DNA from: Flavobacteriaceae bacterium
Lineage (GTDB): Bacteria > Bacteroidota > Bacteroidia > Flavobacteriales > Flavobacteriaceae
Reading direction: 5' to 3'
Assembly (NCBI GenBank): GCA_965224465.1
Contig: OZ245049.1
Location: 270,001 to 302,000 of the forward strand
Length of the DNA stretch: 32,000 nt
Below the pieces are notes generated by a model. The model saw only the letters and a list, made by a program, of their open reading frames with translations, had not been told where the DNA came from and ran no database searches. The translations under genes and the position numbers were made by a program. Positions 327 to 29,654 of this stretch are shown here, one piece after another (within the stretch, counting starts at the first letter, position 1; every line of letters begins with the position of its first letter).

Positions 327-1058
327 ATGAGTGTATCTGATGATATAAAAAGAATTTTATGGCACGAAATGGGACATTTATGTGTCGATACTATAAAGAT
401 AGAAACACATAATAATCTAAAAGTTAACTTATTAAATTTAACTGTTGCTAATGACGGTTTATTTAAATGGAGTGGTTTCGTAGAAATGCTTCCGAGTTTA
501 CCTTTTAAAGATATCCCTATAAATCACTCAATATTAGCATATTCGCTAATTAGTTTACAGGCTGGTTGTGTATTTGAGACTATCTATTTTCAAATTATAA
601 AAGAAAATTCATCAATAAATTTTGGAGATTGTTTTTCTTTTAATAGAGAATGCATTGGGAATGGAGATTGGACAAATTATCATGAAATTTTATCAAAAAT
701 ACGCGAGATCCATCCTGAATTTCGTGGTAAACTTGATTTGAATGGCTATTTGGAAATTGATTTTTCTAGATTAGTAAATATTGCACTTTTCAAGTTGTCA
801 GAATTCATTACAAAAATGAATGAAATAATTGATAATGAAGTTATTAAAATAGAGAAAGACTTTACAGGAAGAGATGGGGCTCATGGAATATATAGCTATA
901 ATTATAGTGGAGATGAGTTAACTGAGTTGATTAATAGAATAATACCATTAATGAATGAATTAGGGTTTAGAGATACTCTAATGGAACTTCATGAGTCATT
1001 TATTAAAAAATTCAGTGATTACATAGACAAATATGACGTAAGGTATAATATTATGTAA
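327..1058 (+). CDS. hypothetical protein with N-terminal HExxH (zinc-metallopeptidase-like) motif
   Basis: 243-aa ORF. HEMGH at residues 13-17 (LWHEMGHLCV). No signal peptide or TM segment. Very AT-rich coding sequence. I recognise no other family signature. Confidence 0.6.
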   Translation: MSVSDDIKRILWHEMGHLCVDTIKIETHNNLKVNLLNLTVANDGLFKWSGFVEMLPSLPFKDIPINHSILAYSLISLQAGCVFETIYFQIIKENSSINFGDCFSFNRECIGNGDWTNYHEILSKIREIHPEFRGKLDLNGYLEIDFSRLVNIALFKLSEFITKMNEIIDNEVIKIEKDFTGRDGAHGIYSYNYSGDELTELINRIIPLMNELGFRDTLMELHESFIKKFSDYIDKYDVRYNIM

Positions 1059-1246
1059 AATAGAATCCCGAGGCTAAACTTAGTCTCATTTAATTTTAGA
1101 TAAAACAATAGGAGAAATAAAAATGCGCACTTCAAATAGTTAGTAATTCGATTCGTTAAGAGTTTCAATTATACAGAGTATTTTCAAAGAATTGATTGAG
1201 AATCACTTCTTTGAAATACCAATAATAAAAAAAGGAAAAAAGACGA

Positions 1247-1536
1247 GTTGAAAGACTAAAGTTAACAAGTGTATAGCACTTTTAAGCAAGGATTATGCAG
1301 TTGGGGAAATTTTATACTCTTGTGGTAATCCACGAGAATGGTGTGAATTTTTTTATAACGTACATTTTATCGAATACGCGATTTTTAATAAGAGCAAAAA
1401 GGTTAACTTTTATTTTGGCGTTGGCAAGCGGCTGGAAATTGTGGTTTAAAAATAATTGCATTAGCAATTTTGTTTTAAGCAAACAATCGAGTGTTTGGCA
1501 GCGGCTATTTTAAATACTATAGAATTATAACTATCA
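1247..1536 (+). repeat. paralogous ~290-bp noncoding element, copy 1 (candidate structured RNA or element 'head')
   Basis: Co-linear nucleotide similarity to 7407-7697 (blocks TTGAAAGAC, CAAGTGTATAG, AAATTTTATACT, TTGGCGTTGGCAAGCG, CAATCGAG, GAATTATAnCTA). The ORF called here (1295-1513) is not conserved in the paralog. Confidence 0.6.
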
Positions 1537-1556
1537 AATACTGATACAAGTTCATA

Positions 1557-2028
1557 AGCCGTAATTTAGTTCACGCTATTCTTGTTTTTTTAAGACGTTC
1601 ATGAATCTCCTAAAGCCGTAATTCTTTTAACATAATATCTGACGATATAAGTCTAAAGACGTTATATCTGATATTATGTGTAAATAGCCTGATAAACGGC
1701 TATACAGAAATTAATGAGCCGTAATTTAGCTCACGCGTTTATATTTTATTGGAATTCATGAATCTCCTAAAGCCGTAATTTCTTTTAACATAATATCTGA
1801 CGATATAAGTCTAAAGACGTTATATCTGATATTATGTGTAAATAGCCTAAAAAACGGCTATACAGAAATTAATAAGCCGTAATTTAGTTCACGCTATTTT
1901 TTTTAAAAAGGAGTTCATAAATCTCCTAAAGTCGATTTCTTTTAACATAATATCTGACGATATAAGTCTAAAGACATTATATCTGATATTATGTAAAATA
2001 GCCGTGAAAAACGGCTATACAGAAATTA
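1557..2028 (+). repeat. tandem array of three ~158-bp units (160/158/154 bp), each with a long imperfect hairpin
   Basis: Units start at AGCCGTAATTTAG (1557, 1717, 1875). They are near-identical except for a ~20-nt T-rich segment after CACGC. Each has the hairpin ACATAATATC..GATATAA..GTC/GAC..TTATATC..GATATTATGT (unit 1: 1630-1679) and a TAGCC-N8-GGCTA stem. No conserved ORF. Confidence 0.85.
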
Positions 2029-2061
2029 CTTTAAATGTACTATAATGTTCTGCGTTATGTT

Positions 2062-2090
2062 ACTTTGCTTGGGTAAAGCAAAGTTTATTT
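2062..2090 (+). terminator. intrinsic terminator downstream of the tandem array
   Basis: ACTTTGCTT (2062-2070) pairs with AAGCAAAGT (2076-2084), a 9-bp stem with a 5-nt loop, followed by TTATTTAT. The minus-strand reading lacks a T-run. Confidence 0.55.
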
Positions 2091-2218
2091 ATCATAATTT
2101 TCTTCAAAAAAATATTTACCAAAAGTTTCTTCTACAATGTTAATGGAACACTTTTTACACGACGACGTAGGAGGGAAGTGTAAAGTGTGTGAAATGGAAA
2201 CAATAGACAATATATTAT

Positions 2219-2890
2219 TTATAAAAACAGCACTTTTTTTACAACATCAAAATAACGAGCGCTAACAGGAATTTTAATATCATTAATAGTTAAATCTTTA
2301 CCAACTAAAGAAGTGACAGCCTTTTTATTAATAATATAAGAACGATGTACTCTCATAAACAATGATTGTGGCAAACTTTCTTCTAAAGACTTTAAAGTTT
2401 GATAACTCATTATTTTTTTACCTTTCATATAAAAAACCACATATTCACTATCGCTTTGTATATATAAAATATCAGTAAATTTTATCTTATGTAAATCATA
2501 ACCAGATTTAATAGTAATGAATTCATTATCGCCAACTTTGATTTTTGATTCTATTTTATTAACTGCTTGTAAAAAACGTTCAAAAGTAATGGGCTTTAAA
2601 AGATAGTCTAACGCATTCAGTTCAAAACCATCTAACGCATATTCAGAATAGGCAGTTGTAAAAATAATTTTAGTACTTGAGGGAATCATTTTAGCAAAGT
2701 CCGTACCTTTTAAATCAGGCATTTGTATGTCTAAAAGAACCACATCAACAACTTCACTATTGAGGATTTCCATTGCATTAATTGGGCTTTCAAATGAACC
2801 AACCAACTCTAAAAAACCAGTTTTATCTACATACATTTTTAGCAATGTTCTTGCTAATTCTTCATCGTCTATAATTACACATTTAAGCAT
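2219..2890 (-). CDS. LytTR/AlgR-family response regulator
   Basis: Receiver domain (IIDDE..., VVLLDIQMPDLKG) plus C-terminal LytTR-type DNA-binding region (FMRVHRSYIINKK). Overlaps the upstream kinase gene by 8 nt. Confidence 0.9.
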   Translation of the reverse strand: MLKCVIIDDEELARTLLKMYVDKTGFLELVGSFESPINAMEILNSEVVDVVLLDIQMPDLKGTDFAKMIPSSTKIIFTTAYSEYALDGFELNALDYLLKPITFERFLQAVNKIESKIKVGDNEFITIKSGYDLHKIKFTDILYIQSDSEYVVFYMKGKKIMSYQTLKSLEESLPQSLFMRVHRSYIINKKAVTSLVGKDLTINDIKIPVSARYFDVVKKVLFL

Positions 2891-3911
2891 CGTTATTAAG
2901 TTTTAATTGTAATCTCACATCAAACACCTCATTACTATCACTTATTTGCAACTGATGCTTTTCGGGATACAAAATACGCAATCTCTTTTTTACATTCTCT
3001 AATCCTATGCCACCAACAGCATCTTTTTCTTTCGGTGTTTTGGGAATGCTGTTTCTTACCGAAAAATTAATTGTGGAAGCATCTGCTTTTAAATCAATGG
3101 TTATAAAACTATCTTTTTGTTTTCCAATAGAACTGTGTTTAAAGGCATTTTCAATAAAAGGAATAAATAACATTGGAGCCAACTTAATAGCATTGTTTTC
3201 AACATTAAAATTAGTTGTAATATTAAAAGGTTTGCTGCTTTTTAAGTTAAACAATCTTATATAATTATTAATATAGTTCACTTCCTTATCTATAGCTACC
3301 AAATTTCGCACACAATCATATAAAACATAACGTAACATTTCTGATAAATAACTAATACTTTCTTGTGTTTTAGGTGAATTTATTACCGATAAACTATAAA
3401 TATTGTTGAGTGCATTAAACAGAAAATGTGGATTTATTTGCGACTTCAATAACTTTAACTCCGTTTGTAATTGTTCATTCTTATTTTGTATCGTTTCTTT
3501 CTCTTTTTCGATGGCATAATAGACACTTTCAATCACAGTTGCAAGAATAAAGGAAAACCCTAGCATTAAGGTGTGATTTATAAAACGTGAAGGTTTATGT
3601 GGTGGCGGAAGTGGCACTGCATTTTCAACAACTAAAATTGGTACTTCTGGTAACGGAAAAATAACTGTAATCAAGAAGGCACAACTTATAGTTAAAATAA
3701 TTCCTAATAGGATGAATTGTAAATGTTTCTTCTTAAACAGCAACTTTGGGGCTAAATACCATATAATTAAAATGATAAAGACGCATTGAACTATAAAAAG
3801 ACAAATAGTTTCTAGTATAAATATAGTTTTTCCTACTTGTGAATTTGCAATAAATATTGCAAAAATTAACCAAAGAACTACTTGAAATAAAATGCGTTTT
3901 TGTCTGTTCAT
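2883..3911 (-). CDS. LytS/His_kinase-type sensor histidine kinase
   Basis: Several N-terminal TM segments, the NPHFLFNALNNI H-box typical of LytS-like kinases, and a C-terminal ATPase region (GGIGLENVKKRL). The ORF track starts at 3938. The ATG at 3909-3911 (MNRQKR...) looks the more plausible start. Confidence 0.85.
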   Translation of the reverse strand: MNRQKRILFQVVLWLIFAIFIANSQVGKTIFILETICLFIVQCVFIILIIWYLAPKLLFKKKHLQFILLGIILTISCAFLITVIFPLPEVPILVVENAVPLPPPHKPSRFINHTLMLGFSFILATVIESVYYAIEKEKETIQNKNEQLQTELKLLKSQINPHFLFNALNNIYSLSVINSPKTQESISYLSEMLRYVLYDCVRNLVAIDKEVNYINNYIRLFNLKSSKPFNITTNFNVENNAIKLAPMLFIPFIENAFKHSSIGKQKDSFITIDLKADASTINFSVRNSIPKTPKEKDAVGGIGLENVKKRLRILYPEKHQLQISDSNEVFDVRLQLKLNNDA

Positions 3912-4101
3912 AGTACAAATAAAGTTAAAAAAAATCAAATGGAATCAAAAATCAGCGATTCAAACAATAGTAATATCTACCCTCAACCGAATATAAAACG
4001 GTATTCACTTAAAAGTTCTTTTCGTTTACTGAAAACCCAAAATAGGCATTAATCTATTGCTCATCTTTGAGGTCATAAACACGAAACAAAATTCTTTTAT
4101 T

Positions 4102-4380
4102 ATGAGACAAAACAGATTTAAAACAGGAATGATTGTAGTGATTTTCTTTTTCTTCGGAATTACAATTTCGCAAGCACAATCTAGCAGACAGAAACCACAA
4201 AAGCCACCAAGGTTTAGCGAACTATTAAAACAAATGGATGCTAACGAAGACAACAAACTTTCAAAAAAAGAAATAAAAGGTTCTTTAAAAAATAATTTTT
4301 CTAAAATTGACTCCAATGAAGATGGGTTTATTACTAAAAAGGAATTTCAAAAAGCCCCAAAACCTAAAAGAACAAGATAG
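4102..4380 (+). CDS. secreted EF-hand calcium-binding protein
   Basis: Signal peptide (MRQNRFKTGMIVVIFFFFGITISQAQ) and two canonical EF-hand loops, DANEDNKLSKKE and DSNEDGFITKKE. The track start at 4057 lies upstream of the signal peptide, so I prefer the internal ATG at 4102. Confidence 0.8.
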   Translation: MRQNRFKTGMIVVIFFFFGITISQAQSSRQKPQKPPRFSELLKQMDANEDNKLSKKEIKGSLKNNFSKIDSNEDGFITKKEFQKAPKPKRTR

Positions 4381-4410
4381 TTTACATAAACAATAAACAA
4401 ATACTTAATT

Positions 4411-5421
4411 ATGAAAAAATCAATTTTAAAAACAACAATAGGTACATTAGTTTTATTAATGGGTCTATTAGTTATATCGTGTTCAAGCGATGATGAAACT
4501 TCTCCAGAAGAAGTAGATACCTCAAGTCATATTTTTAAAGCCGAATTATTAAATTCCGCAAATCTGTTAAGTTCAGTAACATTGGTAGATGCTACTTTAA
4601 CAGACGGAACAACTGCTCAATGCTACAAATTAGTATTCAAAAGTAATCCAGTAGAAGATGGTCCATATTGTCCAGAAACTATTAATGATATTGGTGGAAT
4701 TGGTATTTATGATGGAGCAACAAATCCAGGACTACAAGTTTTAAAGGCAACCTTATGGAATGCTATGGAAGCCGATGGTTATGATATTGTAGATACTAAT
4801 GGTAATATTAATTATAATGACCCAGGAAGTGGAGTTATGCCATCTGGACCAAGTTGTTTAGGGGCAACTCCAAATAATAATTTAGAATTGACGTATTTGA
4901 TTCCTGCTATACCAAAAACAGGTACTTCTGTTGATCAAATTAACGTTGTAGAAAATGTAGGTGTCTCATATAATGGTATTCCTTTGACAGGAAATCCACC
5001 ATCAGTTGTAAATGGCCCTCCAGGAATGGGAGGACCTCCAGGAATGTCGGGAGGTAACATTCCATCTATTGATCCTTGTGGTGGACATATAGACCCATTT
5101 GGCTATTATCATTTGCATTTTGCTCCATCTGAAATGAATAATGTATTAGAAGCACACGATATTAGTGATGTAAGTTGTACAAATTTTACACAAAGTGAAA
5201 TAGCATTTGTTGGTTTTGCAAAGGACGGATATCCTATGTATGCTTCTAAGGACGAAAACGGAACATTACCATCAGATTTAGATGAGTGTCAAGGACATAC
5301 TGCACCTACGGCAGATTATCCTGAAGGAGTATATCATTATCATGCCTCTAATTCATCGGCTCCTAATTTCCCAACTTGTTTAAAAGGAGTATCGGCAGAA
5401 GATTCTTTAACGTATCAATAA
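4411..5421 (+). CDS. YHYH-motif domain lipoprotein
   Basis: Lipobox (LLVISC). Conserved blocks GYYHLHF, AKDGYPMY, LDECQGH and YHYHA match the uncharacterised YHYH protein family. Paralog of 6170-7072. Confidence 0.8.
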   Translation: MKKSILKTTIGTLVLLMGLLVISCSSDDETSPEEVDTSSHIFKAELLNSANLLSSVTLVDATLTDGTTAQCYKLVFKSNPVEDGPYCPETINDIGGIGIYDGATNPGLQVLKATLWNAMEADGYDIVDTNGNINYNDPGSGVMPSGPSCLGATPNNNLELTYLIPAIPKTGTSVDQINVVENVGVSYNGIPLTGNPPSVVNGPPGMGGPPGMSGGNIPSIDPCGGHIDPFGYYHLHFAPSEMNNVLEAHDISDVSCTNFTQSEIAFVGFAKDGYPMYASKDENGTLPSDLDECQGHTAPTADYPEGVYHYHASNSSAPNFPTCLKGVSAEDSLTYQ

Positions 5422-5427
5422 AAAAAG

Positions 5428-6066
5428 ATGAAAAAATTAATTTTAATAGTAGCATTGGTATTTGCAGTTTGCAATGCCAATGCTCATAATCCAGAAACAG
5501 CATCAGTTTATGTAAAGCCAATTAACGGAATTTGGGTAATGCAATTGTCGTTTTCGCAAACAGGTGTACATAATGCACTCACTAAATCTTATACAGATAT
5601 TGATTGGAATACGATATCAACTAATGAATACAAAACAAAATTTATTAGTTATTTAAAGGAGCATCTCGATTTAGATGTCGATGGTCAACATATTGCAATA
5701 ACTTCAGGAGGTATTAAACTAGGAAGTCATCAAACAGATGTAAAACTTTTGTTGCCTGATTTTCCAAATGAATTTAAAAGCGTAACAGCAAATTTTGATA
5801 TTCTTAATGAAAACTCAAATCAAAATACAGTGGTTAGTTTTCAGAATGGTGAAAAATCAGTTAGAAAAATATTGAATAATAAAAACGGCTTTTTAATTAG
5901 TTTTGATAATAGCGTTCAAGGTTTCAACTTGATTGATAATAAAACAAAAAGCAAATTTAATTATTTGTATGTGATTTTTATAGTAGGTGTTATTTGTTTA
6001 GGAGTCTATTCGCTTTTTATTTATAGAAAAAGAAAAGAGTCGACACCAAATTTGGTAATACAATAA
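5428..6066 (+). CDS. hypothetical secreted protein with C-terminal membrane anchor
   Basis: Signal peptide ending ANA|H, so the predicted mature N-terminus is His. Single C-terminal TM (YLYVIFIVGVICLGVYSLFIY) followed by RKRK. The gene starts 7 nt after the upstream stop, so it is probably operonic. Confidence 0.7.
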   Translation: MKKLILIVALVFAVCNANAHNPETASVYVKPINGIWVMQLSFSQTGVHNALTKSYTDIDWNTISTNEYKTKFISYLKEHLDLDVDGQHIAITSGGIKLGSHQTDVKLLLPDFPNEFKSVTANFDILNENSNQNTVVSFQNGEKSVRKILNNKNGFLISFDNSVQGFNLIDNKTKSKFNYLYVIFIVGVICLGVYSLFIYRKRKESTPNLVIQ

Positions 6067-6169
6067 TTAATGATGAGATAAAACGAGAAAATAATTTTCA
6101 GTAACTTTATGATTATGAATGTGTGCAATTATGAAAACATCTGAAAATGTTAACTTTTAAAACAAAAAA

Positions 6170-7072
6170 ATGAAAAATTATCTATATTTAGCAATAACCA
6201 TAGTGATAGTAGGTTGTAATTCTCATACGAGTAAGAAAAGTTCAAAAACTGAATTAAAAACAACTAATCTCGCAGAATTAAATTTCACTAAAAATTACGA
6301 AATCATTAGTAAAGAATTTAAAACTGAAACGTATGTTACAGTTAATGCTACTAATAGAATTATGAAAACCAATGGTTTGCCAAATCATAAAACTGGAATT
6401 TTCCCTAATGAAGGAAATCCTAATACTATTTCGGCTCAAAATTTAACGTATAAATTTCCTGTGAATCCTAAATTTAGTAAAGAATCTAAATGGGCAAGAG
6501 AACCAGGTGTTGCGCTAAATGGTATTAAATTTGAACCAGAAACTGCTGAAAGATTTGTTTGTGAAACAGGAGAAGTATACAAAATTGAAGCTTTTCAAGA
6601 ATTAGTAGATATTGGACTTGATTTTAATCGTGCACACGTTCAACCAACAGGAGCTTATCATTATCACGGAGTTCCTACTGAATTAATAAAAGTACTAGAT
6701 AAAGGAAAAGATATTATTTTGATTGGATATGCAAAAGATGGCTTTCCAATTTATCATTCTAAAAGCGGAAAATATAAACCAAGCTATCAATTGGTTAAAG
6801 ATTTAAGAACTGGAGATATATGTTCTTACAAAAACCCTAAATTAACCCTAAATGAAAGTTTAAAAGACACCAAACCAGATGGAACTTTTGTTTCAGATTG
6901 GGAATACGTAAACGGATTAGGCGATTTGGATGAATGCAATGGAATAGAATTGAACGGAGAATACTCTTATTTTGTCACGAATGAATATCCATATATGAGT
7001 AGGTGTTTAAAAGGTGAATTTATTGAAGAAGCTCCAAAAGGACCACCTCCAGGTCAACATCCTCATAAATAA
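6170..7072 (+). CDS. YHYH-motif domain lipoprotein (paralog)
   Basis: Lipobox (IVIVGC). Blocks GAYHYHG, AKDGFPIY and LDECNG shared with 4411-5421. Pro/Gly/His-rich C-terminus (PKGPPPGQHPHK). Confidence 0.8.
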   Translation: MKNYLYLAITIVIVGCNSHTSKKSSKTELKTTNLAELNFTKNYEIISKEFKTETYVTVNATNRIMKTNGLPNHKTGIFPNEGNPNTISAQNLTYKFPVNPKFSKESKWAREPGVALNGIKFEPETAERFVCETGEVYKIEAFQELVDIGLDFNRAHVQPTGAYHYHGVPTELIKVLDKGKDIILIGYAKDGFPIYHSKSGKYKPSYQLVKDLRTGDICSYKNPKLTLNESLKDTKPDGTFVSDWEYVNGLGDLDECNGIELNGEYSYFVTNEYPYMSRCLKGEFIEEAPKGPPPGQHPHK

Positions 7073-7406
7073 GATATAAATTAAAAATTCTTAGGTAGTT
7101 TTTTAAAACGACCTCATAAAACTTTGGTTAAACAATAGGAGAGTGGAGCGTCTATATTTTAGGGATTTAGTAACTAATATTTTTGGTTTTTCTAAATATG
7201 AAAGCAAGTTATTTATAGTATTGGTTTGTTACAATGTTTCCTGAAATATAGCGTAACGAACCGTAATTGTTTCCAAAGTTTTTGTGCAGTCTTGATTTTT
7301 TTATTTCTTTTTTTATTAAGAAAAAAAGATAAGAATGAAAAGATTGAGAGTTCAAAAGTTGAATTTCTATTTTACATAATATTAATAGTTACAATTTAAA
7401 AAAGTT

Positions 7407-7697
7407 CAATTGAAAGACGAAACGAGCAAGTGTATAGAAATTTTAAAGCGTAGATAATGCGGTTGAAAATTTTATACTGTTGCGTAAAGTTTACTAAATG
7501 TTAATGAGATTTTTTTACAACGAGAAGATCAATGCAATTCCTGAATTTAATTAGAAGCTAAAAGGTTTTGCTTTTTTTGGCGTTGGCAAGCGATGGATAA
7601 TTGTGTTTAAAAAAATTACTGCGACAGCATAATTATTTTTAAAAAGCAATCGAGCGTTTGCGAGCGGCAATTTTACATAATGACGAATTATAGCTAC
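7407..7697 (+). repeat. paralogous ~290-bp noncoding element, copy 2
   Basis: Same ordered sequence blocks and nearly the same length as 1247-1536. No ORF of 60 aa or more is called here. Confidence 0.6.
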
Positions 7698-7849
7698 AAA
7701 TGTATAAACGGAAAGTTTCTGAGAATCGCGTATTTAAAAATACTTAAAACCATTGTACAGAATATTAGATTTAAACGTACTATTAAAACACTAATATTTG
7801 ATGACCCAAGTAATACGGTTTATTATGTGTACAGAACATTCTGGGATAT

Positions 7850-7922
7850 TTAACATAATATAGAATTATAGCTATCTAATTTTAATGAAATGGATTTGTA
7901 CTATAATTTACATTATGTTAAA
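7850..7922 (+). repeat. long hairpin homologous to the hairpin of the 1557-2028 tandem units
   Basis: TTAACATAAT (7850-7859) pairs with ATTATGTTAA (7913-7922). AATTATAG (7864-7871) pairs with CTATAATT (7901-7908). The flanks TTAACATAATAT...ATTATGT(G)TAAATAG match the tandem-unit hairpin, but the interior differs. Confidence 0.5.
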
Positions 7923-8451
7923 TAGAAATAGTTACATAACATATGCTATCCTTTTGTTCGAAATCTTAAACGTTTGAAAACGGATACTGTGTTTTTGAGA
8001 ATCAGATATTATGGACCACACTGCGTATTTATTAATCTATAAGATTCTCAGATCGATAGTTATTCAATATATAAAATCCTGTCTACGTTTACATAGTTAC
8101 AACGAATAGATAATCCCTACGGATTACAACATCTTAGAATTATATTAACTATAAAGAAAGCAATTAAGTTCATAGATGTATAATACAAACTAAAATGATC
8201 AGTATAAATTATTTTTGTACGTTCTAGTGTTGGTGAAAAATAATTCTAGTACTAAGCACTAAACCGTCTCAGTTGGAAATTTATTTGGGATTAATACAAC
8301 AATCGCCAATGTCTATATCAATTGATAACTTATTAGTTATTGACTATGTGGATCAAAAATGCACAAGAATTTAGCCATTATCTGCATTTCTTCTATTGGA
8401 TGTCAATTAACAAAATTAAAACCCGCATACTAACAGTTTAGTGAGTGGCAG

Positions 8452-13825: not shown

Positions 13826-13831
13826 ATATAT

Positions 13832-13924
13832 AACCTCTGGGCAAGCCCCTGAGGCATCAAAAAGAAAAAAACCTTAATCATTTCGATGTAAGTATCAGGA
13901 ATTAAACCCACTGATGGGATTAAA
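13832..13924 (+). repeat. 93-bp REP/MITE-like element, copy 1
   Basis: CCTCTGGGCAAGCCCCTGAGG hairpin, then CATCAAAAAGAAAAAAACCTTAATCATTTCGATG, then GAATTAAACCCACTGATGGGATTAAA hairpin. Related to 14008-14096, 18378-18469 (reverse orientation) and 29545-29638. Confidence 0.85.
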
Positions 13925-13941
13925 TATACTGATTTTGTTAT

Positions 13942-13972: not shown

Positions 13973-14007
13973 GTACTCCTACCCTACTCTTATTCTACAA
14001 AGTCAAT

Positions 14008-14096
14008 ATCCTCTGGGCAAGCCTCTGAGGCATCAAAAAGAAAAAAATCTTAATCATTTCGATGTAAGCATATGGGAATTAAACCTCCCTGTGAGT
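14008..14096 (+). repeat. REP/MITE-like element, copy 2
   Basis: Same element as 13832-13924. The 3' hairpin is degenerate (AAACCTCCCTGTGAG). Confidence 0.8.
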
Positions 14097-18147: not shown

Positions 18148-18377
18148 GTTGTAAAAAAGGTTTTGGAATCAATTAGGGGATAATTTTCATGAAAAACAAG
18201 AGAAGTATCCCTTATTGTTCCGCTTTCTAATGGTGTTTTTTTAGTTTTAAAAAATGTCTCCTCATAGATCTAAGTAGCTTATATTGCATTTCTAGGAGCG
18301 CTAAAACGGGAGTTATAATTGGAATAAGAAATAGTATTCTCATCCATGTCCATGTCACTTTTGAATATAAAAAGGCA

Positions 18378-18469
18378 TTTAATCCCACCAGTGGGTTTAA
18401 TTCCCAGATGTTTGCTTCGAAATGATTAAGGTTTTTTCTTTTTCAGGCCTCGTGGGCTTGCCCCGAGCT
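18378..18469 (-). repeat. REP/MITE-like element, copy 3 (reverse orientation)
   Basis: Its reverse complement matches 29545-29638, including the CTCGGGGCAAGCCCACGAG and AAACCCACTGGTGGGATTAAA hairpins. Confidence 0.85.
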
Positions 18470-18660
18470 TATTGGCTATGGTCATTAAAATAGAGTGCAA
18501 TAAGTATAGCAAGACCATAAAAAAAGGGAAGCCCTTTTGCGATCGGTTTTCCAGTAACATCACTGCCAGAGAAATTTTGTTTCTTAAAAAAAAGGAGCAT
18601 CCATGTAAGAATACTTAGATATACAATAATACGTAAGCGTACGGTAAAGTACACCCTTGA

Positions 18661-20163
18661 TTATTTATCAACAGGCTTCCAATTTTGAGGCAGTAACTCC
18701 GAAAGTTTATTAGCCTTATGTTCTGGTAATCTATTAAGGACATCACATAGCCACGTATGTGGGTTTACGTTATTCTTTTTGCAAGTAGCAAAAAAGCTAT
18801 AAAATAGAGCTATGTTTTGTGCGGACTCATGACTGCCAGCAAAGAGATAATTTTTTCTGCCAATAGCTAAAGGTCTTATGGCATTTTCTATATTATTGTT
18901 GTCTATTTCAAACCTGCCATCATCGATGTATAGTTTTAGGTTTTGCCATATTTTAAGAGTATAAGCAATTGCTTTTCCTATGGCACTTTTAGGCAGTACG
19001 TTTTTTCGCTCTTTTGTAAGATAAATTTCTATTCCGTCTAAAACAGGTGATGCATGTTTTTCTCTATATGCTTTAGTTTGCTCAATAGTTAATTCTTGTT
19101 CTTTTATTTTACGTTCTATCTTGTATAGCTTTTGAATTTCCAACAAAACAACATCCGCTCTTTTAGGATCATTATCCAGCGCCTTCTCAAAATACCGCCT
19201 AGCATGAGCCATGCAACCTAAAAGAGTAATTTCTCCTTTTGTTGTTAAGTTTTGGTATGCAGCATACCCATCGGACTGTAGTGTCCCATTGAAATCTTTA
19301 AAAAACTCTTCTGGAACAACTTTTCCTCTCCCTTTATTGTATTCAAAAAGAACTAAATTTTTAACAGGATTTCGATACACCCACATATACCCTCTGTGTG
19401 TTGATTTTTTCTTGTCTTTATCTAAAACCTTTATAGGAGATTCGTCTGCTTGAATATAATTGGCATTTTCTAAAAACTGAGCCTTAAATGTATCGTATAA
19501 AGGAGCGATAAGCTCCGAACTTTTAGATACCCATCCTCCAATTGTTGATTTACTTACTTTTAAATCTTGTCGTTTAAAAATTTGAATTAATCTGTAAAGT
19601 GGTAAATGGTCTACAAATTTTGAAATAAGTATAAAGGCCAATAAACTTGCTGATGCATTTCCTTTAGGTATCGGTAAGCTTGGTAATTCTGCTATAACAA
19701 CGCCTTTTTCTTCCGGAAGTGCATATTTAGGTCTTACAATTCGTCTTACAAAAACGGAAAGAGGCGTTATTTCTAAAAGTTCTGTAACTTCTTCTCCTAT
19801 TTTTACAGCTCCTTCTTCTATGTGCTTAGGCTCTATAATCTCTTCTACTCGCGGAAAATGCGCAGGTATAGAAGAGCGAACAGGTTTTTTCTTTCCTTTC
19901 TTCTTTTGTTTTCTTTCGTAGATTACAATATGTTTTTTGTATGCCTCTTCTTTCTCAGCTATTATTTTTCCGAAAAGCGACAATTGATTTGTGTCAACAG
20001 GGATAAAACGTTCGCTTTTAGACCCGAAAACCATTCTTTTAAGCTGCTCGTATTGCTGCTTAATTTCAGCTAGTTCTTGAGCTGTTTTTTCAAGTTCAAT
20101 CTTTAAAATTACCAGCTCTTTTTGTATGTCTATTGTATTGTTTTCCACACTATAAATATACAA
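18661..20163 (-). CDS. tnpC: IS66-family transposase TnpC
   Basis: 500 aa. N-terminal coiled-coil/leucine-zipper-like region, a DDE-region pattern (IQADESPIKVLD) and a C-terminal region typical of IS66 transposases. Confidence 0.9.
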   Translation of the reverse strand: MYIYSVENNTIDIQKELVILKIELEKTAQELAEIKQQYEQLKRMVFGSKSERFIPVDTNQLSLFGKIIAEKEEAYKKHIVIYERKQKKKGKKKPVRSSIPAHFPRVEEIIEPKHIEEGAVKIGEEVTELLEITPLSVFVRRIVRPKYALPEEKGVVIAELPSLPIPKGNASASLLAFILISKFVDHLPLYRLIQIFKRQDLKVSKSTIGGWVSKSSELIAPLYDTFKAQFLENANYIQADESPIKVLDKDKKKSTHRGYMWVYRNPVKNLVLFEYNKGRGKVVPEEFFKDFNGTLQSDGYAAYQNLTTKGEITLLGCMAHARRYFEKALDNDPKRADVVLLEIQKLYKIERKIKEQELTIEQTKAYREKHASPVLDGIEIYLTKERKNVLPKSAIGKAIAYTLKIWQNLKLYIDDGRFEIDNNNIENAIRPLAIGRKNYLFAGSHESAQNIALFYSFFATCKKNNVNPHTWLCDVLNRLPEHKANKLSELLPQNWKPVDK

Positions 20164-20206
20164 AAAACAAGACTAAATAGCAGGTAAAACCTACAGTTTT
20201 ATTGAA

Positions 20207-20560
20207 TTATTTAGCCTCTAAATAACGTTCGTTTTTCTGAGTATTTATAATACTAATTCCGTCTAAAACCATAACCATTTGGGTATAACTCAAAACTACT
20301 AATCCATCTTCAATGTCGTATTTTGGAAGCTCAAAAATACCTCGTTCCAATCGTTTATAATACAGTACAAATCCTCCAGGTCGCCAATGAAGAAGTTTTA
20401 GTTTATTTTTTTGCTTATTGATAAATGCATAAACACTATTTCTATCTCGCTCTTGTTCCATGTGCTCACTAACTAATCCACTTAATCCATTAAATCCTTT
20501 TCGCATATCAACTGCAGATAAGTGATAATAATACGTGTGTTCTGTACCTAATCCTAACAT
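20207..20560 (-). CDS. tnpB: IS66 Orf2-like accessory protein TnpB
   Basis: 117 aa. MRKGFNGLSGLV...KLKLLHWRPGGFVLYYKRLERGIFELP matches the IS66 Orf2 family pattern. Confidence 0.9.
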   Translation of the reverse strand: MLGLGTEHTYYYHLSAVDMRKGFNGLSGLVSEHMEQERDRNSVYAFINKQKNKLKLLHWRPGGFVLYYKRLERGIFELPKYDIEDGLVVLSYTQMVMVLDGISIINTQKNERYLEAK

Positions 20561-20913
20561 TTATATTTTCGTTTTTGTTTAGATGCAAAAATTAGATTAT
20601 TTTTAACTTCTTACAAGATGTAGTTCTCCGTACGCTTACAATAATACTACTTCCTATAATAATGGTTACTGTCCTATTTATTTTTGAATTACAGGAACTA
20701 ATTTATAGTTTTAAAAACGAGTTTATATTTATTTTTACACTCATTTTATGAATTTGCAAATAAGGGGCTTATTCACCAATGTACTGTTAGTAATATAAAA
20801 AACAGTATTAAAGCATTACTTCTTAGTCTTTACTGTAAGTTATTGTTATACAGTAGATAACGACTTGTTTTGTTAGTTCGTGGCTAAAAAGTAAAAACAG
20901 TATAGGTGGATAC

Positions 20914-23047: not shown

Positions 23048-24358
23048 TTACACAATAGATACGCGTACTTTCTTTTTCTTTAGTCGTGAATTGTTTAGAT
23101 TACTTACCAATTGATCTGCTATTTTTTTAGGAACGGCTACAAATGCACAATCCTGTTTCAGTTCTATCACTCCAAGTTGATCTTTAGTCAAGTTGCCTTG
23201 TTTAAAAAACAATCCAGCAATATCTCCTTTAGAAATTTTGTCTTTTCTACCACCAGAAATAAATAAAGTCACCCATTTTGGTGCTTTTCTTGTGCTTTTT
23301 TCCGATAATTTTATCACTTTAGAATTGTGTATAAAATCGGGTAAACGATCATCTTTGTGTTTTAAAACATAGGCTGTCCCAGACTCGTCTACACGTGCTG
23401 TACGCCCATTTCTATGGGTAAACTCTTCCTCTTTTAAAGGCAATTGATAATGTATAATAAACTTTAAAGCTGGAATGTCTATCCCACGTGCCGCTAAATC
23501 TGTAGCTACAATTATTTGATGCGTTCCATTTCTGAATTTTATCAAAGAACGTTCTCTGTCCTTTTGCTCCATTCCTCCGTAAAAACAACCGTGTTTGATG
23601 CCTTTCTCGTCTAAATAACGACTGACATCACTTATTGTGTCTTTTAGATTACAAAATACAATACCAGGCGTATTCCCAACATGATTTAAGACATCAACCA
23701 AAATCTGCATTTTATTTTTAGAGGGAGACATCACTGTTTGAAGAGTCAGGTTGGAACTGCGTTTCTTTAAGAAATTCACCACTGTATGCTTTCCTAATTT
23801 CGCAAATTCAGGAATTTCCAATTCTTGGGTAGCAGAGGTTAAAATCCGTTTGTCAATACTTGGTAATTCATGAATTATCCCACGCATTTCATATTCAAAA
23901 CCAACTTCTAAAGACTTGTCAAACTCGTCCAAAACCAATGTTTTAATAAAGTCCCTAGAAAAACGCTCACGACTAAAATGATCCGCAATACGTCCAGGTG
24001 TTCCTATTAAAATTGCGGGCGTGTGTTTCAATTCTATTTTGTCCTTAGACATGGCTCTTCCTCCATATACCGCATTTACTTTATACCCAGAGCCAAGTTC
24101 TCTAACTACTTGCTCTATTTGAATAGCCAACTCTCTAGAAGGTACTAAAATTAATGCCTGCACCTCTTTACTTGCTGGATCTAATCGATCGATTAGCGGG
24201 AGTAAAAACGCCAAGGTTTTTCCTGTTCCAGTAGGCGATAAAATAACGACATTACTATGTGATTCTATGGCTTCCAGTGCTTTATTCTGCATTGGATTCA
24301 ACTCCTTGATATTTAATTTATCAAGCATTTCTTGCTGATGTTTTATTGTATTTGCCAT
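23048..24358 (-). CDS. DEAD-box-family RNA helicase with DbpA-like C-terminal domain; motif II is DEFD
   Basis: Motif I SPTGTGKT, motif II VLDEFD, SAT, and motif VI HRNGRTAR. The C-terminus (WVTLFISGGRKDKISKGDIAGL...) resembles the DbpA RNA-binding domain. The start at MANTIK (24358) is preferred over the track start at 24394, which overlaps the upstream gene. Confidence 0.85.
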   Translation of the reverse strand: MANTIKHQQEMLDKLNIKELNPMQNKALEAIESHSNVVILSPTGTGKTLAFLLPLIDRLDPASKEVQALILVPSRELAIQIEQVVRELGSGYKVNAVYGGRAMSKDKIELKHTPAILIGTPGRIADHFSRERFSRDFIKTLVLDEFDKSLEVGFEYEMRGIIHELPSIDKRILTSATQELEIPEFAKLGKHTVVNFLKKRSSNLTLQTVMSPSKNKMQILVDVLNHVGNTPGIVFCNLKDTISDVSRYLDEKGIKHGCFYGGMEQKDRERSLIKFRNGTHQIIVATDLAARGIDIPALKFIIHYQLPLKEEEFTHRNGRTARVDESGTAYVLKHKDDRLPDFIHNSKVIKLSEKSTRKAPKWVTLFISGGRKDKISKGDIAGLFFKQGNLTKDQLGVIELKQDCAFVAVPKKIADQLVSNLNNSRLKKKKVRVSIV

Positions 24359-24359
24359 C

Positions 24360-25706
24360 TTATTTTTTCTTCTTTTTCTTTGTTGATTTATCACTGACCA
24401 CAGCGCTAGTACCTGTTTGATTTACCAGGTAATGTGCCAGTACTTTTTCTACCAATTCCTCTTTTGTTAAATGATGAAATATCGTGTGTATTTGTTTTTT
24501 AAACTGAGCTGTTACCTCTCTATTGGGCTTAATTTTAAAAATTTTCTTAGCCCATAACAAACCGTTATTTTCTTCAATACTTTGAGCATCGGCTTTTTTA
24601 AATTTAGAAAATTTAATGCCCAATGCTTTTTCAAAATCATTAATATCTTCTTCCTCTTCCTTTTGCAATACAGTCAGAGAGAAACCTTTGGCTCCTGCCC
24701 TAGCCGTTCTTCCACTTCTGTGAACATAAGTTTCGTAAACTTCTGGTAAATGGTAATTCACAACATAGGAAATTTCCTTTATATCAATACCACGAGCAGC
24801 TAAATCTGTAGCGACCAATATGTTTATTTGTCCCATTCTAAACTGCCCCATAATACGATCTCTAATCCCTTGGCTTAGACTTCCATGTAAAGCGCCAGAA
24901 GAGAATTTATTAATCGCTAAATTCTTTGCCAATTTATTCACTGCAGCTTTGGTTTTGCAAAAGATAATTCCGCGTTCACCTTCCCTCGAAGTTAAGAAAT
25001 GCATCAATACATCCAATTTTTCTATAGGTGCTACAACTACATATTGATGGTCTATTCCTTGATGACCAACAGTTTCCATATCTGCACTTACTTGCGTAAC
25101 ATGCTTGGACATGTAATTTTGAATTAATTGCTTGATATTTCCTGGCATGGTAGCCGTAAACAGTAGCGTACGGTATTTTTCTGGCAATACCGCTACAATT
25201 TTATCCAAGCCATCTTTTAAAGAAGTAACCATTTCATCAGCCTCGTCCAAAACCAAATAATTGGTGTTTTTAAGATTGACGTTATTTCGTTGAATTAAAT
25301 CTATTAAGCGCCCTGGAGTGGCTACAATTATATGTGTGGCTTCTTTAAGACGTTCAATTTGAGGCTTGATAGGAACCCCTCCACAAATGGATGCGATAGA
25401 TACTGCTGGAAGCTGACTCGCAAAAGAAACTAAATTTGTATATATCTGTTGTCCCAACTCGCGTGTTGGAGCAAGAATCACTGCTTGTATTTTTGGGTTT
25501 TCTGGATCAATTAATTGCAGTAAAGGCACACCAAAAGCAGCTGTTTTCCCCGTTCCTGTTTTTGCCAATCCAACAAAATCATCTTCTTGATTTAATAAAA
25601 CGGGAATTGATTTTTCCTGAATGCTTGTAGGTATGGTAATCTTAAGTTTGGCTAAGCCTAAAACTAAAGAAGAGGAAACTCCTAAAGCGGCAAATTGTTG
25701 TGACAT
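24360..25706 (-). CDS. DEAD-box ATP-dependent RNA helicase
   Basis: Motif I AKTGTGKT, DEAD (VLDEADEM), TAT and HRSGRTARAG. Lys-rich C-terminal tail (KSTKKKKKK). Confidence 0.9.
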   Translation of the reverse strand: MSQQFAALGVSSSLVLGLAKLKITIPTSIQEKSIPVLLNQEDDFVGLAKTGTGKTAAFGVPLLQLIDPENPKIQAVILAPTRELGQQIYTNLVSFASQLPAVSIASICGGVPIKPQIERLKEATHIIVATPGRLIDLIQRNNVNLKNTNYLVLDEADEMVTSLKDGLDKIVAVLPEKYRTLLFTATMPGNIKQLIQNYMSKHVTQVSADMETVGHQGIDHQYVVVAPIEKLDVLMHFLTSREGERGIIFCKTKAAVNKLAKNLAINKFSSGALHGSLSQGIRDRIMGQFRMGQINILVATDLAARGIDIKEISYVVNYHLPEVYETYVHRSGRTARAGAKGFSLTVLQKEEEEDINDFEKALGIKFSKFKKADAQSIEENNGLLWAKKIFKIKPNREVTAQFKKQIHTIFHHLTKEELVEKVLAHYLVNQTGTSAVVSDKSTKKKKKK

Positions 25707-26093: not shown

Positions 26094-26334
26094 AAATAGA
26101 ACCGTGGTAGCCAGGAGTTAAACCTGCTTTTCCAAAAACCACAAAGATTTACACCAAGACCATCGAAATAAATAATAAAAAAATAGTTGGACCGCTTGAA
26201 AATTTAAAAAATTTGAATACTTTTAACAAAAAACTCACATAACCCGAGACTATTATAATATAACGGAAATAACGTTACGTTTTGGAAGTTTATTGATGAT
26301 ATATGGGTGTTGGCCACAACCCAAACAATAATCA

Positions 26335-29638: not shown

Positions 29639-29654
29639 AATAACATATCTTAAA

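Follow-up and report, generated by a model that had tools for sequence, protein, structure and literature searches.

Near the start of the 32-kb stretch of Flavobacteriaceae DNA analysed here (called the window, 32,000 nucleotides in its full length), three long tandem repeats with strong hairpins follow one another, raising the question whether they act as RNA, as DNA, or not as an array at all. A reading made from the letters alone (the sequence-only reading) had suggested an array that is transcribed and processed to RNAs of about 160 nt. Its description of three ~158-bp tandem units with hairpins of 10 + 7 + 3 bp was confirmed by Tandem Repeats Finder, a pattern scan and folding. For positions 1554-2028, Tandem Repeats Finder gave 3.0 copies with a period of 157-158, 88% matches and a score of 713-753, and the unit alignment had a mean column identity of 90%. 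The differences cluster in a T-rich segment after CACGC. Outside of this core the units differ by ~3-7%, while the core is mostly different, so that near-identical parts of ~138 nt alternate with segments of 18-21 nt differing between the units. The following features were assigned:

1554-2030, plus strand: array of three tandem ~158-bp units (Tandem Repeats Finder, unit alignment, nhmmer placement)
1557-1716, plus strand: unit 1
1717-1874, plus strand: unit 2
1875-2030, plus strand: unit 3
1629-1679, no strand assigned: hairpin of unit 1 (pattern scan and folding; covariation in 25 genome and 58 metagenome copies)
1787-1837, no strand assigned: hairpin of unit 2, same sequence as in unit 1
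1944-1994, no strand assigned: hairpin of unit 3, with a 3′ arm ending in the exact XerD arm TTATGTAAAAT (1989-1999)
1685-1702, 1843-1860 and 1999-2017, no strand assigned: small stem TAGCC-N8-GGCTA in units 1, 2 and 3 (read from the sequence)

In agreement with the earlier statement that the units share no ORF, neither a conserved ORF nor a tRNA or an Rfam family was found in the array. Rfam 15 gave no hits at gathering score in the window and in 15 related loci, hits at E ≤ 10 were at chance level, and a tRNA/tmRNA scan found nothing. Each unit has a tiny minus-strand ORF behind AGGAGAT-N2-ATG (MNVLKKQE, MNSNKI and MNSFLKKIA); these were rejected as genes, as beta-type copies (described below) carry ACG instead of ATG. 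The motif AGCCGTAATT occurs five times in the array, and with up to one mismatch there are 8 matches in the whole window versus 2.4 expected in shuffles. The small stem, also noted before, was found in all units; other genomes have a small stem of other sequence in the equivalent position, for example CGC/GCG or CAGC/GCTG (by inspection).

The pattern AACATAATAT-N20-50-ATATTATGT, which covers the unit hairpin, occurs exactly three times in the window, whereas shuffles predict 0 occurrences. The folding energy of the hairpin as single-stranded DNA is −9.9 kcal/mol on the plus strand and −9.1 kcal/mol on the minus strand (z-scores −4.7 and −4.5), its 10 + 7 + 3 bp being interrupted by a 4×1 internal loop and one bulged G. 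In unit 1, the base is formed by inverted XerD-arm half-sites (ACATAAT / ATTATGT) and followed by the internal loop; above lie the conserved box GATATAA / TTATATC, the bulged G, 3 bp and a tetraloop. The XerC-side arm matches dif only in the TATA core, and unit 3 has 8 mismatches to the full 28-nt dif. The sequence-only reading had mentioned in an aside that the arms could be sites for a dimeric protein, and this came closest to the outcome, given that two inverted half-sites of dif, both of XerD type, make up the stem base.

Comparison with other copies indicated at which level the hairpin is maintained. Pairing in the inner hairpin reaches 92%, against 23-48% for slid partners, and both partners have changed in 8 pairs. 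At the 7 positions unconstrained by the search pattern, the 58 metagenome copies have 86% Watson-Crick pairs versus 48% when shuffled. The boxes CATAAT/ATTATG and GATAT/ATATC are invariant, and the variable pairs between them covary (columns 11-13 with 48-50, and 23-28 with 35-41). This covariation runs almost only from Watson-Crick to Watson-Crick: G.T was found in 4 of 532 cells of the genome set and in 5 of 406 cells of the metagenome set, which has 33 A.C mismatches on the plus strand. Few G.T but many A.C on the plus strand is the opposite of what is expected for a plus-strand RNA. These counts bear on the proposal of a structured non-coding RNA array, in which a plus-strand transcript would extend to the terminator at 2062-2090 and be processed into ~160-nt hairpin RNAs. 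The strong folding of each unit would fit, but the pairing changes, the A.C excess, the stem base formed by the XerD arm of dif and the lack of an Rfam match do not.

The occurrence of the unit in other DNA argues in the same direction. A pattern search in metagenomes returned at least 120 contigs, and among the 120 listed the inner module is single in 118; the other two have tandem copies, with a different period of ~245. The module lies 35-61 nt (usually 41-46 nt) upstream of dif in 71 contigs and upstream of a junction termed J2 in 24, the remaining contigs of the 120 being unclassified or cut. The array is thus not the functional form of the module, which speaks against processed array RNAs. 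In sequence, structure and position, the single module is kept across many genera and metagenomes, with compensatory changes.

In many genomes, one inner module (the hairpin, then the small stem) is held in the loop at the end of a larger element, E. This conserved, ORF-free element of ~750 nt was detected in over 100 Flavobacteriaceae, each genome having it at a single locus. An nhmmer profile built from 84 copies of other genomes detected two copies in the window, together with the dif-related sites at their borders:

1043-1516, plus strand: element A, the internal (older) copy of E (nhmmer E = 6.5e-15 and 1.1e-74)
1051-1061, plus strand: XerD-arm remnant TTATGTAAAAT at the left border of element A (exact 11-mer scan)
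1503-1539, plus strand: degenerate inverted dif-like site, the 5′ arm of the terminal forked hairpin of element A (repeat family D6)
7079-7895, plus strand: element B, full-length E (nhmmer E = 5.2e-139, model positions 35-781)
7844-7880, minus strand: inverted dif-like site of element B with XerD arm TTATGTTAAAT (dif-site scan)
7896-7923, plus strand: chromosomal dif, TTGTACTATAA TTTACA TTATGTTAAAT (scan with the published G. forsetii dif)

Element A matches the model at positions 20-170 and 279-568, the parts 170-279 and 568-680 being absent. A left border with a XerD arm was also seen in many of 56 left borders listed from other loci. The site at 1503-1539 is 84% identical to 7844-7880 and was compared with the terminal hairpins of other genomes. 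A 72-aa ORF at 1295-1513 was rejected because copy B has no counterpart. E as a dispersed repeat or MITE family was rejected as well, since all copies are found in one locus per genome; in the genome scan, E hits on the same contig always lay in adjacent 8-kb tiles.

The link between E and dif is direct. The last 28 nt of the E consensus are exactly the published dif of Gramella forsetii, a predicted site located 0.003% from the GC-skew shift point (Kono et al. 2011; PMC3025954 supplement). The site at 7896-7923 is the sole 28-mer in the window within 2 mismatches of this dif. It has 2 mismatches to it and shares its centre and XerD arm exactly with the dif of C. hutchinsonii. Its 28 bp divide into a XerC arm (11 bp), a centre (6 bp) and a XerD arm (11 bp) that carries the conserved TTATGTnAAAT. 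GC skew over the 32-kb window tracks gene orientation only and is uninformative on the terminus position. Among the 106 loci with E, exactly one dif was found in 75 and two in none; in all 75, dif stands at the 3′ end of an E, as it does in the window, with no E or J2 beyond it. Support for one dif per chromosome comes from the window and related loci.

The end of E consists of an inverted dif-like site, a loop and dif. At 7844-7925, the inverted site pairs with dif in an outer forked hairpin with a mismatched central region (−11.5 and −12.5 kcal/mol). The sequence-only reading had connected the units with 7850-7922, and this segment is indeed the terminal hairpin of the second, complete E copy and contains dif. 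Across 29 genomes, 94% of the outer hairpin is paired, both partners have changed in 5 pairs, and compensatory changes extend into the XerC arm of dif. This complicates a further explanation, by which Xer or an architectural protein would bind half-sites and boxes in the duplex and control dif recombination, with no extrusion of hairpins. Accessory sequences control recombination at the plasmid sites cer and psi, and a palindromic duplex site would likewise give Watson-Crick-only covariation. Also, the invariant boxes and the near-fixed distance of the module on the XerC side of dif would be understandable. However, the covariation of the variable pairs between the boxes would not be needed if separate half-sites were read, the asymmetry of 33 A.C versus 5 G.T is unexpected for a duplex site, and the complementarity of the outer arms reaches well past the 28-bp site. 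We therefore regard duplex accessory sites as unlikely.

The array at 1554-2030 occupies the loop of the terminal hairpin of element A. The triplication is therefore a rare local amplification, located in a copy of E that is older and partly degraded. Since the outer arms of element A (1503-1539 and 2037-2063) no longer pair well, it is most likely without function as an array. At this point, neutral debris has to be considered, that is, a minisatellite formed of decayed mobile-element ends and a MITE-like insert, the module elsewhere being an integration relic. The rarity of tandem copies, the internal position of the host E copy with its two deletions and poorly pairing arms, and a different type of mini-module in unit 2, suggesting recombination among repeats, all agree with it. 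Yet the unit hairpin is constrained: the single module is conserved with compensatory changes well beyond this locus, and the non-core parts of the units differ just slightly compared with the T-rich core. As a whole this explanation appears unlikely; it may be right for the triplication, not for the module.

The T-rich segments were traced to an insertion that is also found elsewhere. That they differ between the units, as noted earlier, is correct, but they are not unit-specific: these "variable" segments of ~20 nt form the core of a 57-nt mini-insertion that other loci carry in two types, alpha and beta.

1568-1623, plus strand: mini-module of unit 1, alpha type (best match alpha, 83-84%, against 26 other copies), in the order AGTTCACGC, T-rich core, TTCATGAATCTCCTAAAG, CCGTAATT
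1728-1780, plus strand: mini-module of unit 2, beta type (89% to the beta copies of loci L227 and L025, 80% to unit 1)
1886-1939, plus strand: mini-module of unit 3, again alpha type (86% identity with alpha copies)

The mini-module occurs at several positions, always in loops and always in the orientation of E; elsewhere, the beta type usually sits in the loop of the 5′ hairpin of E. It may be called MITE-like (miniature-transposon-like) by analogy. Like MITEs and REP-like insertions, it is short, non-coding, present at several positions and accompanied by an apparent 3-4-nt ATTT duplication, but clear terminal inverted repeats and an identified transposase are lacking. This comparison applies to the 57-nt mini-module only.

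The alternation of near-identical and differing parts is reminiscent of a CRISPR-like or omega-RNA-like guide array, with a long scaffold followed by a variable guide of 18-21 nt. The variable segments are, however, low-complexity T-runs matching alpha and beta cores in other genomes, by which a spacer-like reading was rejected. Pfam scans of neighbouring ORFs found no cas, tnpB or iscB domains, a recurrent family of these types was lacking in related loci, and the unit is single nearly everywhere. We give a guide array practically no credence. CRISPR repeats of 23-50 bp with unique spacers and cas genes contrast with the 158-bp unit, its shared T-runs and the absence of cas domains here, and the earlier exclusion of CRISPR, toxI-like repeats and iterons holds. 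Group II intron, omega-RNA (TnpB/IscB), retron and bridge RNA were dismissed too, as no associated protein, Rfam hit or domain-V-like motif (by inspection) was found, and a Sigma-TnpB lead (PMC10691335) did not fit.

Downstream of the array, the border to the next cassette and a second conserved module were identified:

2037-2063, plus strand: junction J2, where element A borders on the next cassette (in the first locus set, 42 copies), composed of the dif XerC arm GTACTATAA, the 9 nt TGTTCTGCG and the XerD-like arm TTATGTTAC
2062-2197, plus strand: module M2, with a terminator-like hairpin (2062-2084), a conserved stretch and the end GTGTGTGAAATGG

In multi-copy loci, J2 is found after internal, non-terminal E copies. 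The hairpin at 2062-2084 has a T-rich tail and was flagged as terminator-like on the plus strand only. The terminator-like hairpin noted earlier is real and conserved, which is a point in favour of a non-coding RNA array ending there. It belongs to M2 and not to the repeat, however, and M2 follows every internal junction, with or without an inner module. The consensus fold of M2 exists on the plus strand only (228 G.U versus 2 A.C), and the core of E also folds on the plus strand only, with many G.U pairs. Consensus structures came from block 440-585 and M2 only; RNAalifold on a MAFFT alignment of the whole element gave little. These G.U-rich structures make plus-strand transcription plausible, and transcription of the plus strand across the region is possible. 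For the array itself, processing into ~160-nt RNAs is not supported, given the single modules, mostly beside dif or J2, and the covariation, and we judge it distinctly unlikely.

The loci share a common grammar in which E, J2, M2 (~135 nt) and variable cargo recur in this order up to a last E with one intact dif at its end. Multi-copy loci obey E-J2-M2-cargo-E, with a few incomplete or truncated copies. In the window, cargo was assigned on both sides of element A:

327-1058, plus strand: 243-aa ORF containing a HEMGH motif, assigned as cargo to the preceding cassette (ORF list)
2219-7072, no strand assigned: cargo belonging to the dif-proximal cassette, flanked by M2 and element B (Pfam)

The stop codon of the first ORF falls inside the XerD-arm remnant. 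The ORF has no Pfam or PADLOC match; its homologues occur in Gabija, type I restriction-modification and Mrr islands, and those of loci L002 and L003 precede the 5′ module of E. The second cargo comprises genes for a LytTR response regulator, a histidine kinase, an EF-hand protein, two YHYH proteins and a DUF6702-like protein. Binding sites of the adjoining LytTR regulator were rejected as an explanation of the module, which lies beside unrelated genes in other genomes. In 29 delimited cassettes, cargo of 1.4-7.2 kb was found with 117 ORFs in 106 clusters, 80% of the cargo ORFs being co-oriented with E. Across loci, the cargo includes a CBASS cyclase with 2TM effector, Mrr, HD-CE/HATPase, an IrrE-type peptidase, Gabija and type I restriction-modification. 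ORF clustering and Pfam revealed no recurrent recombinase-like family in the window or the 106 loci. Two scans of viral contigs contained no free circular or phage-borne form of the backbone, and a phage origin was rejected on these empty scans.

From all these data, we consider it probable that the array arose when the loop module of a dif-linked mobile-cassette backbone was amplified locally to three copies. Cassettes of M2, cargo and E would enter at dif via the XerC and XerD recombinases of the host, without a recombinase of their own, and probably as folded single-stranded DNA in the manner of phage CTXphi and integron attC sites. Each integration would leave the inactive hybrid junction J2 and regenerate dif at the end of the array. 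The hairpins would act at the DNA level, either as Xer substrates or as fold-stabilising elements, and slippage or unequal exchange may have produced the triplication. By itself the array is of modest interest; the dif-linked cassette system is of high interest. In the literature covered, which is incomplete, no description of dif-linked cassette arrays in Flavobacteriaceae was found, nor was the site sequence mentioned in the main texts of the papers.

By analogy, the cassette arrays resemble a Xer-dependent CTXphi- or integron-like system and apparently use the host Xer proteins. As CTXphi-type integrative mobile elements exploiting Xer (IMEX), they are integrated at the chromosomal dif and have no integrase of their own (PMC3091885, PMC3442271). 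In CTXphi-like phages, two inverted dif-like sites enable the single-stranded form to recombine (PMC3091885). The corresponding parts here are dif-bounded cassettes with one functional dif restored (E-J2-M2-cargo-E-dif, left borders with a XerD arm), the lack of an element-encoded recombinase among the clustered cargo ORFs, and two inverted dif-like sites that, like attP(+) of CTXphi, can pair by predicted fold as a forked hairpin with unpaired centre; the inner hairpin is alike in layout. Tandem arrays with one functional dif regenerated at the array end are a further common trait. In contrast to IMEX, the E loci lack phage genes, no copy is present in viral contigs, and there are ~900 nt of conserved non-coding DNA, arbitrary cargo and a presence across a whole bacterial family.

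With integrons and CALINs, the loci share an ordered array of diverse, promoter-poor cassettes including anti-phage genes, and cassettes would likewise be inserted at one array end. The hairpins recall attC sites as imperfect palindromes with structural conservation, an internal unpaired spacer and an extrahelical base, and the layout of the unit hairpin (10 bp, 4×1 loop, 7 bp, bulged G, 3 bp) is attC-like. The attC core motifs R″/R′ are RYYYAAC/GTTRRRY, and they fit only the dif-side hairpin at 7850/7916 (ATTTAAC ... GTTAAAT), not the array units. Differences are that IntI, attI and Pc were not seen beside the array in the window or the 106 loci, that dif and not attI is the anchor, and that each cassette has a backbone of ~900 nt instead of an attC of 60-140 nt. 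Acinetobacter pdif modules are similarly bordered by XerC/XerD-type sites, some inverted, and have no dedicated recombinase; they are plasmid-borne, with alternating site orientation and no long conserved backbone, whereas the elements here are chromosomal, polar and anchored at a single dif. Within the same phylum, Bacteroidetes microvirus proviruses lack an integrase and have dif-like flanks (PMC3091885). BMV1-7 share the dif-like direct repeats, some with an extra inverted dif-like site (PMC3091885), but are Bacteroidales proviruses of 4.6-6.3 kb with capsid and Rep genes, in contrast to the Flavobacteriaceae loci without viral genes.

Several observations do not fit easily with the cassette model. 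A 28-bp site is enough for Xer integration, which leaves ~900 nt of conserved backbone unexplained. J2 has a 9-nt spacer, and in many left borders only ~2 nt precede the XerD arm. Also, the plus-strand-only, G.U-rich folds of the E core and M2 fit a role as RNA, and the asymmetry of the hairpins (33 A.C versus 5 G.T) is opposite to theirs. Xer recombination is unstudied in Bacteroidetes (PMC3091885). Tentatively, and as a serious possibility that falls short of being likely, a wider interpretation can be offered: Flavobacteriaceae would have a recombinase-less, integron-like capture platform at dif, into which host XerCD insert cassettes serially via a folded single-stranded attP. The arbitrary, often anti-phage cargo would travel with the backbone of ~900 nt (E + M2), which would also encode a strand-specific structured RNA or a single-strand origin-like element for the life cycle, and the 158-bp units would be spare foldable Xer sites.

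For annotation, long ORF-free and highly structured stretches such as these count neither as RNA genes of a known kind nor as CRISPR-like arrays. If the dif-linked cassette model is true, strand choice could be studied on the loci as a natural collection of foldable Xer sites. It would also raise the question of the role of a highly conserved, strand-specific non-coding backbone. Xer-exploiting elements, so far a few phages and plasmid modules, would come to include a chromosomal platform spanning a whole family, and accessory and defence genes of Flavobacteriaceae could be found by a simple rule, namely next to dif on its XerC side. In a major group of marine bacteria, the replication terminus would then be a site of gene capture, working like an integron with the borrowed housekeeping Xer system and accumulating defence functions (CBASS, Gabija, restriction enzymes) and regulators.

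A tandem array with a period of 157-158 bp and 3.0 copies occupies 1554-2028 (88% matches; Tandem Repeats Finder), its units starting at 1557, 1717 and 1875. In a unit-to-unit alignment 90% of the columns are in common, and a T-rich stretch after CACGC holds almost every difference. Each unit carries one hairpin, AACATAATATCTGACGATATAAGTC-TAAA-GACGTTATATCTGATATTATGT, for which shuffled sequences expect 0 matches and whose folding energy as single-stranded DNA is about -9 to -10 kcal/mol for each strand (z near -4.6).

1629-1679, 1787-1837, 1944-1994: unit hairpins, located by pattern search

The sequence-only reading had described repeat and hairpin accurately, and its doubled AGCCGTAATT motif, TAGCC-N8-GGCTA stems and terminator-like hairpin on the plus strand (2062-2084) were confirmed. 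No ORF, tRNA or Rfam family explains the region. The array very probably belongs to a family of elements linked to dif, the XerC/XerD chromosomal dimer-resolution site. Our overall reading, which we favor with less assurance, is that the array is a dif-like, foldable loop module in triplicate, which belongs to a cassette backbone linked to Xer/dif and acts at the DNA level.

Of the 290 nt that precede the array (1221-1516), a diverged second copy lies at about 7400-7700, with the identity concentrated in islands. Searched with a pattern built from two of these islands, the genome collection gave at least 119 matching stretches, which, among the matches listed, came nearly all from Flavobacteriaceae of many genera. 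Alignment of 84 copies with their flanks delimited a conserved, roughly 750-nt block, named E, which contains no conserved ORF and has no model in Rfam. The E profile located two copies in the window:

7079-7931 as profile match, 7079-7895 up to dif: element B, a full-length copy
1043-1191 and 1221-1516, or 1043-2063 including the array: element A, the internal copy of the locus, without two internal segments

Several contigs of the genome scan held more than one match, among the matches listed always in adjacent 8-kb tiles. Therefore, there is one E locus per genome, and E as a dispersed repeat was ruled out. An ORF family of about 140 aa with the motifs REGVDFLI and SNWEIK, without Pfam or PADLOC match, was seen in ten loci (L009, L010, L016, L019, L026, L044, L051, L070, L121, L122); among the proteins of the system it alone is semi-recurrent. 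These ORFs end about 200-470 nt upstream of the GGCGTTGGCAAGCG anchor (920-1555 nt in two loci), in several of the genomes within E between its 5' and middle modules. Also, GC-rich small hairpins (TCCCGAAGCTTCGGGA and similar) stand at varying places in otherwise AT-rich E copies and resemble tiny mobile hairpins of a second kind:

L098, about 847-933, minus strand: GC-rich small hairpin
L122, about 650-723: GC-rich small hairpin
L037, about 1281-1355: GC-rich small hairpin

The consensus of E ends with TTGTACTATAA-TTTATA-TTATGTAAAAT, identical in every letter to the dif site that Kono et al. 2011 predicted for Gramella forsetii KT0803. According to their supplement (PMC3025954), this site lies 0.003% of the chromosome away from the point where the GC skew shifts, and the sites predicted for F. 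johnsoniae, Robiginitalea and Cytophaga show differences of a few bases. The window contains exactly one near-perfect dif, TTGTACTATAA TTTACA TTATGTTAAAT, which ends element B. One dif with up to three mismatches was present in 75 of the 106 E-bearing loci and two in none; in all 75 it closed an E on the 3' side, and in none of these was a further E or junction found past it.

Mapped loci with several copies follow a largely uniform order: E, a hybrid junction (J2) composed of the XerC arm of dif, 9 nt and TTATGTAAC, M2, a conserved module some 135 nt long with a terminator-like hairpin at its start and GTGTGTGGAATGG at its end, cargo genes, again E, and so on to a last E with intact dif. In some of these loci E copies are truncated or the end of M2 is unrecognisable. 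The window fits this order, with element A and the array following the first ORF and element B preceding dif:

327-1058: cargo ORF, 243 aa
2037-2063: J2
up to 2197: M2, its terminator-like hairpin at 2062-2084 on the plus strand
2219-7072: dif-proximal cargo (LytTR regulator, histidine kinase, EF-hand protein, YHYH proteins)
7896-7923: dif

Altogether 29 cassettes with 1.4-7.2 kb of cargo were delimited, whose 117 ORFs fell into 106 similarity clusters and had the orientation of E in 80% of cases. Sampled cargo included a CBASS cyclase with a 2TM effector, Mrr-type endonucleases, an HD-CE/HATPase protein, an IrrE-type peptidase and DUF488. The neighboring and cargo ORFs of the related loci yielded no recurrent recombinase. 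Homologues of the 243-aa protein (43-61% identity) adjoin, in the contigs examined, Gabija, type I restriction-modification, Mrr and AAA_15/21 genes; after two of them (L002, L003) comes the 5' part of E, as in the window. The protein, with a HEMGH motif, has a family in neither Pfam nor PADLOC; its stop codon falls within a remnant of the XerD arm, and the protein may represent an uncharacterised defence-island gene.

Judged from this anatomy, the layout is that expected of IMEXs, elements integrating at dif through the host XerC/XerD; every insertion would leave a hybrid junction and restore dif at the end of the array of cassettes. By this model, element A would be the older copy. Many left borders show a short 'centre', and scans of viral contigs gave no free or viral form of the element. 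The literature searched, of incomplete coverage, yielded no description of dif-linked cassette arrays in Flavobacteriaceae; for dif it provided site predictions and microvirus proviruses of Bacteroidales at dif (PMC3025954 supplement; PMC3091885).

E terminates in a long hairpin formed by an inverted dif-like site, a loop and dif (7844-7925 in the window). In 29 distinct copies its arms pair in 94% of cells versus 29-45% with slid partners, five pairs show two-sided changes, some of them inside the XerC arm of dif, and the central region keeps mismatches. CTXphi-like phages likewise possess two inverted dif-like sites, by which the single-stranded genome recombines with dif (PMC3091885; PMC3442271). 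In many genomes the loop of the terminal hairpin holds a single inner module that corresponds exactly to the core of the unit in the window. The kinship proposed between the array and 7850-7922 was correct. The stem base of this inner hairpin is ACATAAT/ATTATGT, its 3' arm extending into a XerD arm, for which unit 3 has exactly TTATGTAAAAT and a sister subfamily TTATGTCAAAT; this bears out the earlier aside on protein sites. Beyond the base, an internal loop is followed by a second box that does not vary, GATAT(A)/(T)ATATC, and a bulged base and a short stem at the apex complete the hairpin; downstream lie a small stem, about 12 nt and then dif. As a putative foldable dif-like site the hairpin is well founded on the XerD side and weaker on the XerC side, since only the TATA core resembles dif there.

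The inner hairpin pairs in 92% of cells in 25 genome copies (23-48% when slid), with both-sided changes in 8 pairs. In 58 distinct metagenome copies, obtained with a pattern leaving 7 base pairs unconstrained, these were Watson-Crick in 86% versus 48% after shuffling. Changes hardly ever passed through G.T, which occurred in 4 of 532 cells of the genome set and 5 of 406 of the metagenome set; the mismatches present were mostly A.C on the E strand (33 vs 5 G.T in the metagenome set), corresponding to G.T on the opposite strand. This argues against a hairpin of plus-strand RNA, and the proposal of a transcribed and processed RNA array found no support; the pattern fits a putative DNA-level structure. 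With RNA parameters, crediting G.U, the opposite strand was more stable for 53 of the 77 inner hairpins and 26 of the 36 outer ones, and DNA parameters gave no clear difference; there are hints that the bottom strand would be the folding one. Among the matches listed, the inner hairpin lies 35-61 nt (usually 41-46) upstream of dif in 71 of 120 metagenome contigs and upstream of J2 in 24, the others being unclassified or cut at the contig end. That the hairpins are true Xer substrates when single-stranded is a tentative suggestion.

The differences between the units also have counterparts elsewhere. Their T-rich stretch (18-21 nt) is the core of a 57-nt mini-module consisting of AGTTCACGC, the core, GGAG-TTCATGAAT-CTCC and TAAAGTCGATTT, always in the orientation of E and with an apparent ATTT duplication. 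In other genomes it occupies four different insertion places in E, which from their flanking sequences all appear to be hairpin loops. Type alpha, usually directly before the inner hairpin, is present in units 1 and 3, and type beta, usually in the 5' hairpin loop of E, in unit 2, whose mini-module has 89% identity to beta copies versus 80% to unit 1. Since the stretches are cores of a two-type mini-module known in other genomes, variable segments serving as spacers or guides were ruled out. The mixture of types points to probable recombination among copies. In L227 (about 2230), a beta mini-module with the E 5'-loop flank on its left and the inner-hairpin flank on its right suggests that recombination between two mini-modules deleted most of E.

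Element A encloses the units in its terminal hairpin, as its 3' arm reappears only past the array (about 2036-2062). Among the matches listed, the inner hairpin was single in 118 of 120 metagenome contigs and its module tandemly duplicated in two, with a different period of about 245 bp, and the genome loci examined held no comparable array; amplification to three copies is therefore rare and specific to the lineage. Because element A is internal, has lost two segments and has a degenerate inverted site at 1503-1539, whose pairing with its partner at 2037-2063 is poor by inspection, we regard the triplication as structural drift of an end out of use, via slippage or unequal exchange, and not as a functional array. 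Other tandem repeats at dif loci were found in L052 (298-630), L111 (6633-6847), L145 (2583-3033) and L222 (5778-6336); units of 82 bp (x4.1) and 98 bp (x2.2) immediately past dif have a XerD arm in each, and duplications of about 245 bp take in the inner hairpin. Short tandem amplification beside dif seems recurrent, with unrelated unit sequences.

Xer integration would need no more than a 28-bp site; about 900 nt of backbone are kept, almost to the base, across genera. The E core around GGCGTTGGCAAGCG ... CGAGCGTTTGGTAGC and M2 have consensus structures on the plus strand only (226 G.U vs 14 A.C and 228 G.U vs 2 A.C, respectively), and in many other copies this strand of the M2 hairpin contains a T.G pair. 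The strand asymmetry of this backbone is opposite to that of the hairpins. From these structures, E core and M2 may act as RNA or, like a single-strand origin, as plus-strand single-stranded DNA, and transcription of the plus strand into the M2 terminator, as proposed earlier, is possible. M2 (2062-2197 and 42 copies from genome-scan loci) has a conserved loop GACGACGTAGGAGGGAAG, and some copies contain a short ORF from ATGTTAATGGAACAC in a frame that is not conserved.

Further features of the window include an IS66-family element (18377-20900, minus strand). About 100 nt beside its genes (18377-18480) with a GC hairpin CCTCTGGGCAAGCCCCTGAGG, taken to be the end of the element, recur as three separate copies, two just upstream of a TonB-dependent receptor gene at 14549 and one upstream of an ORF at 29628. 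Non-coding segments of 35-75 nt in two to three copies (74-82% identical) lie near genes at 26628 and 29628. Two neighboring DEAD-box helicase genes (23048-25706, minus strand) are paralogues encoding 448 aa each, and one of them has a DbpA RNA-binding domain.

18661-20163, minus strand: DDE_Tnp_IS66 transposase
20207-20560, minus strand: TnpB_IS66
13830-13928, 14006-14085, 29543-29642, plus strand: copies of the 18377-18480 sequence
25979-26245, 27974-28108, 29350-29461: non-coding 35-75-nt segments

Taken alone, the array is of modest interest, and the larger weight lies on the dif-linked system it revealed, which is a variant, undescribed in the literature searched, of known kinds, namely IMEX and integron-like arrays.
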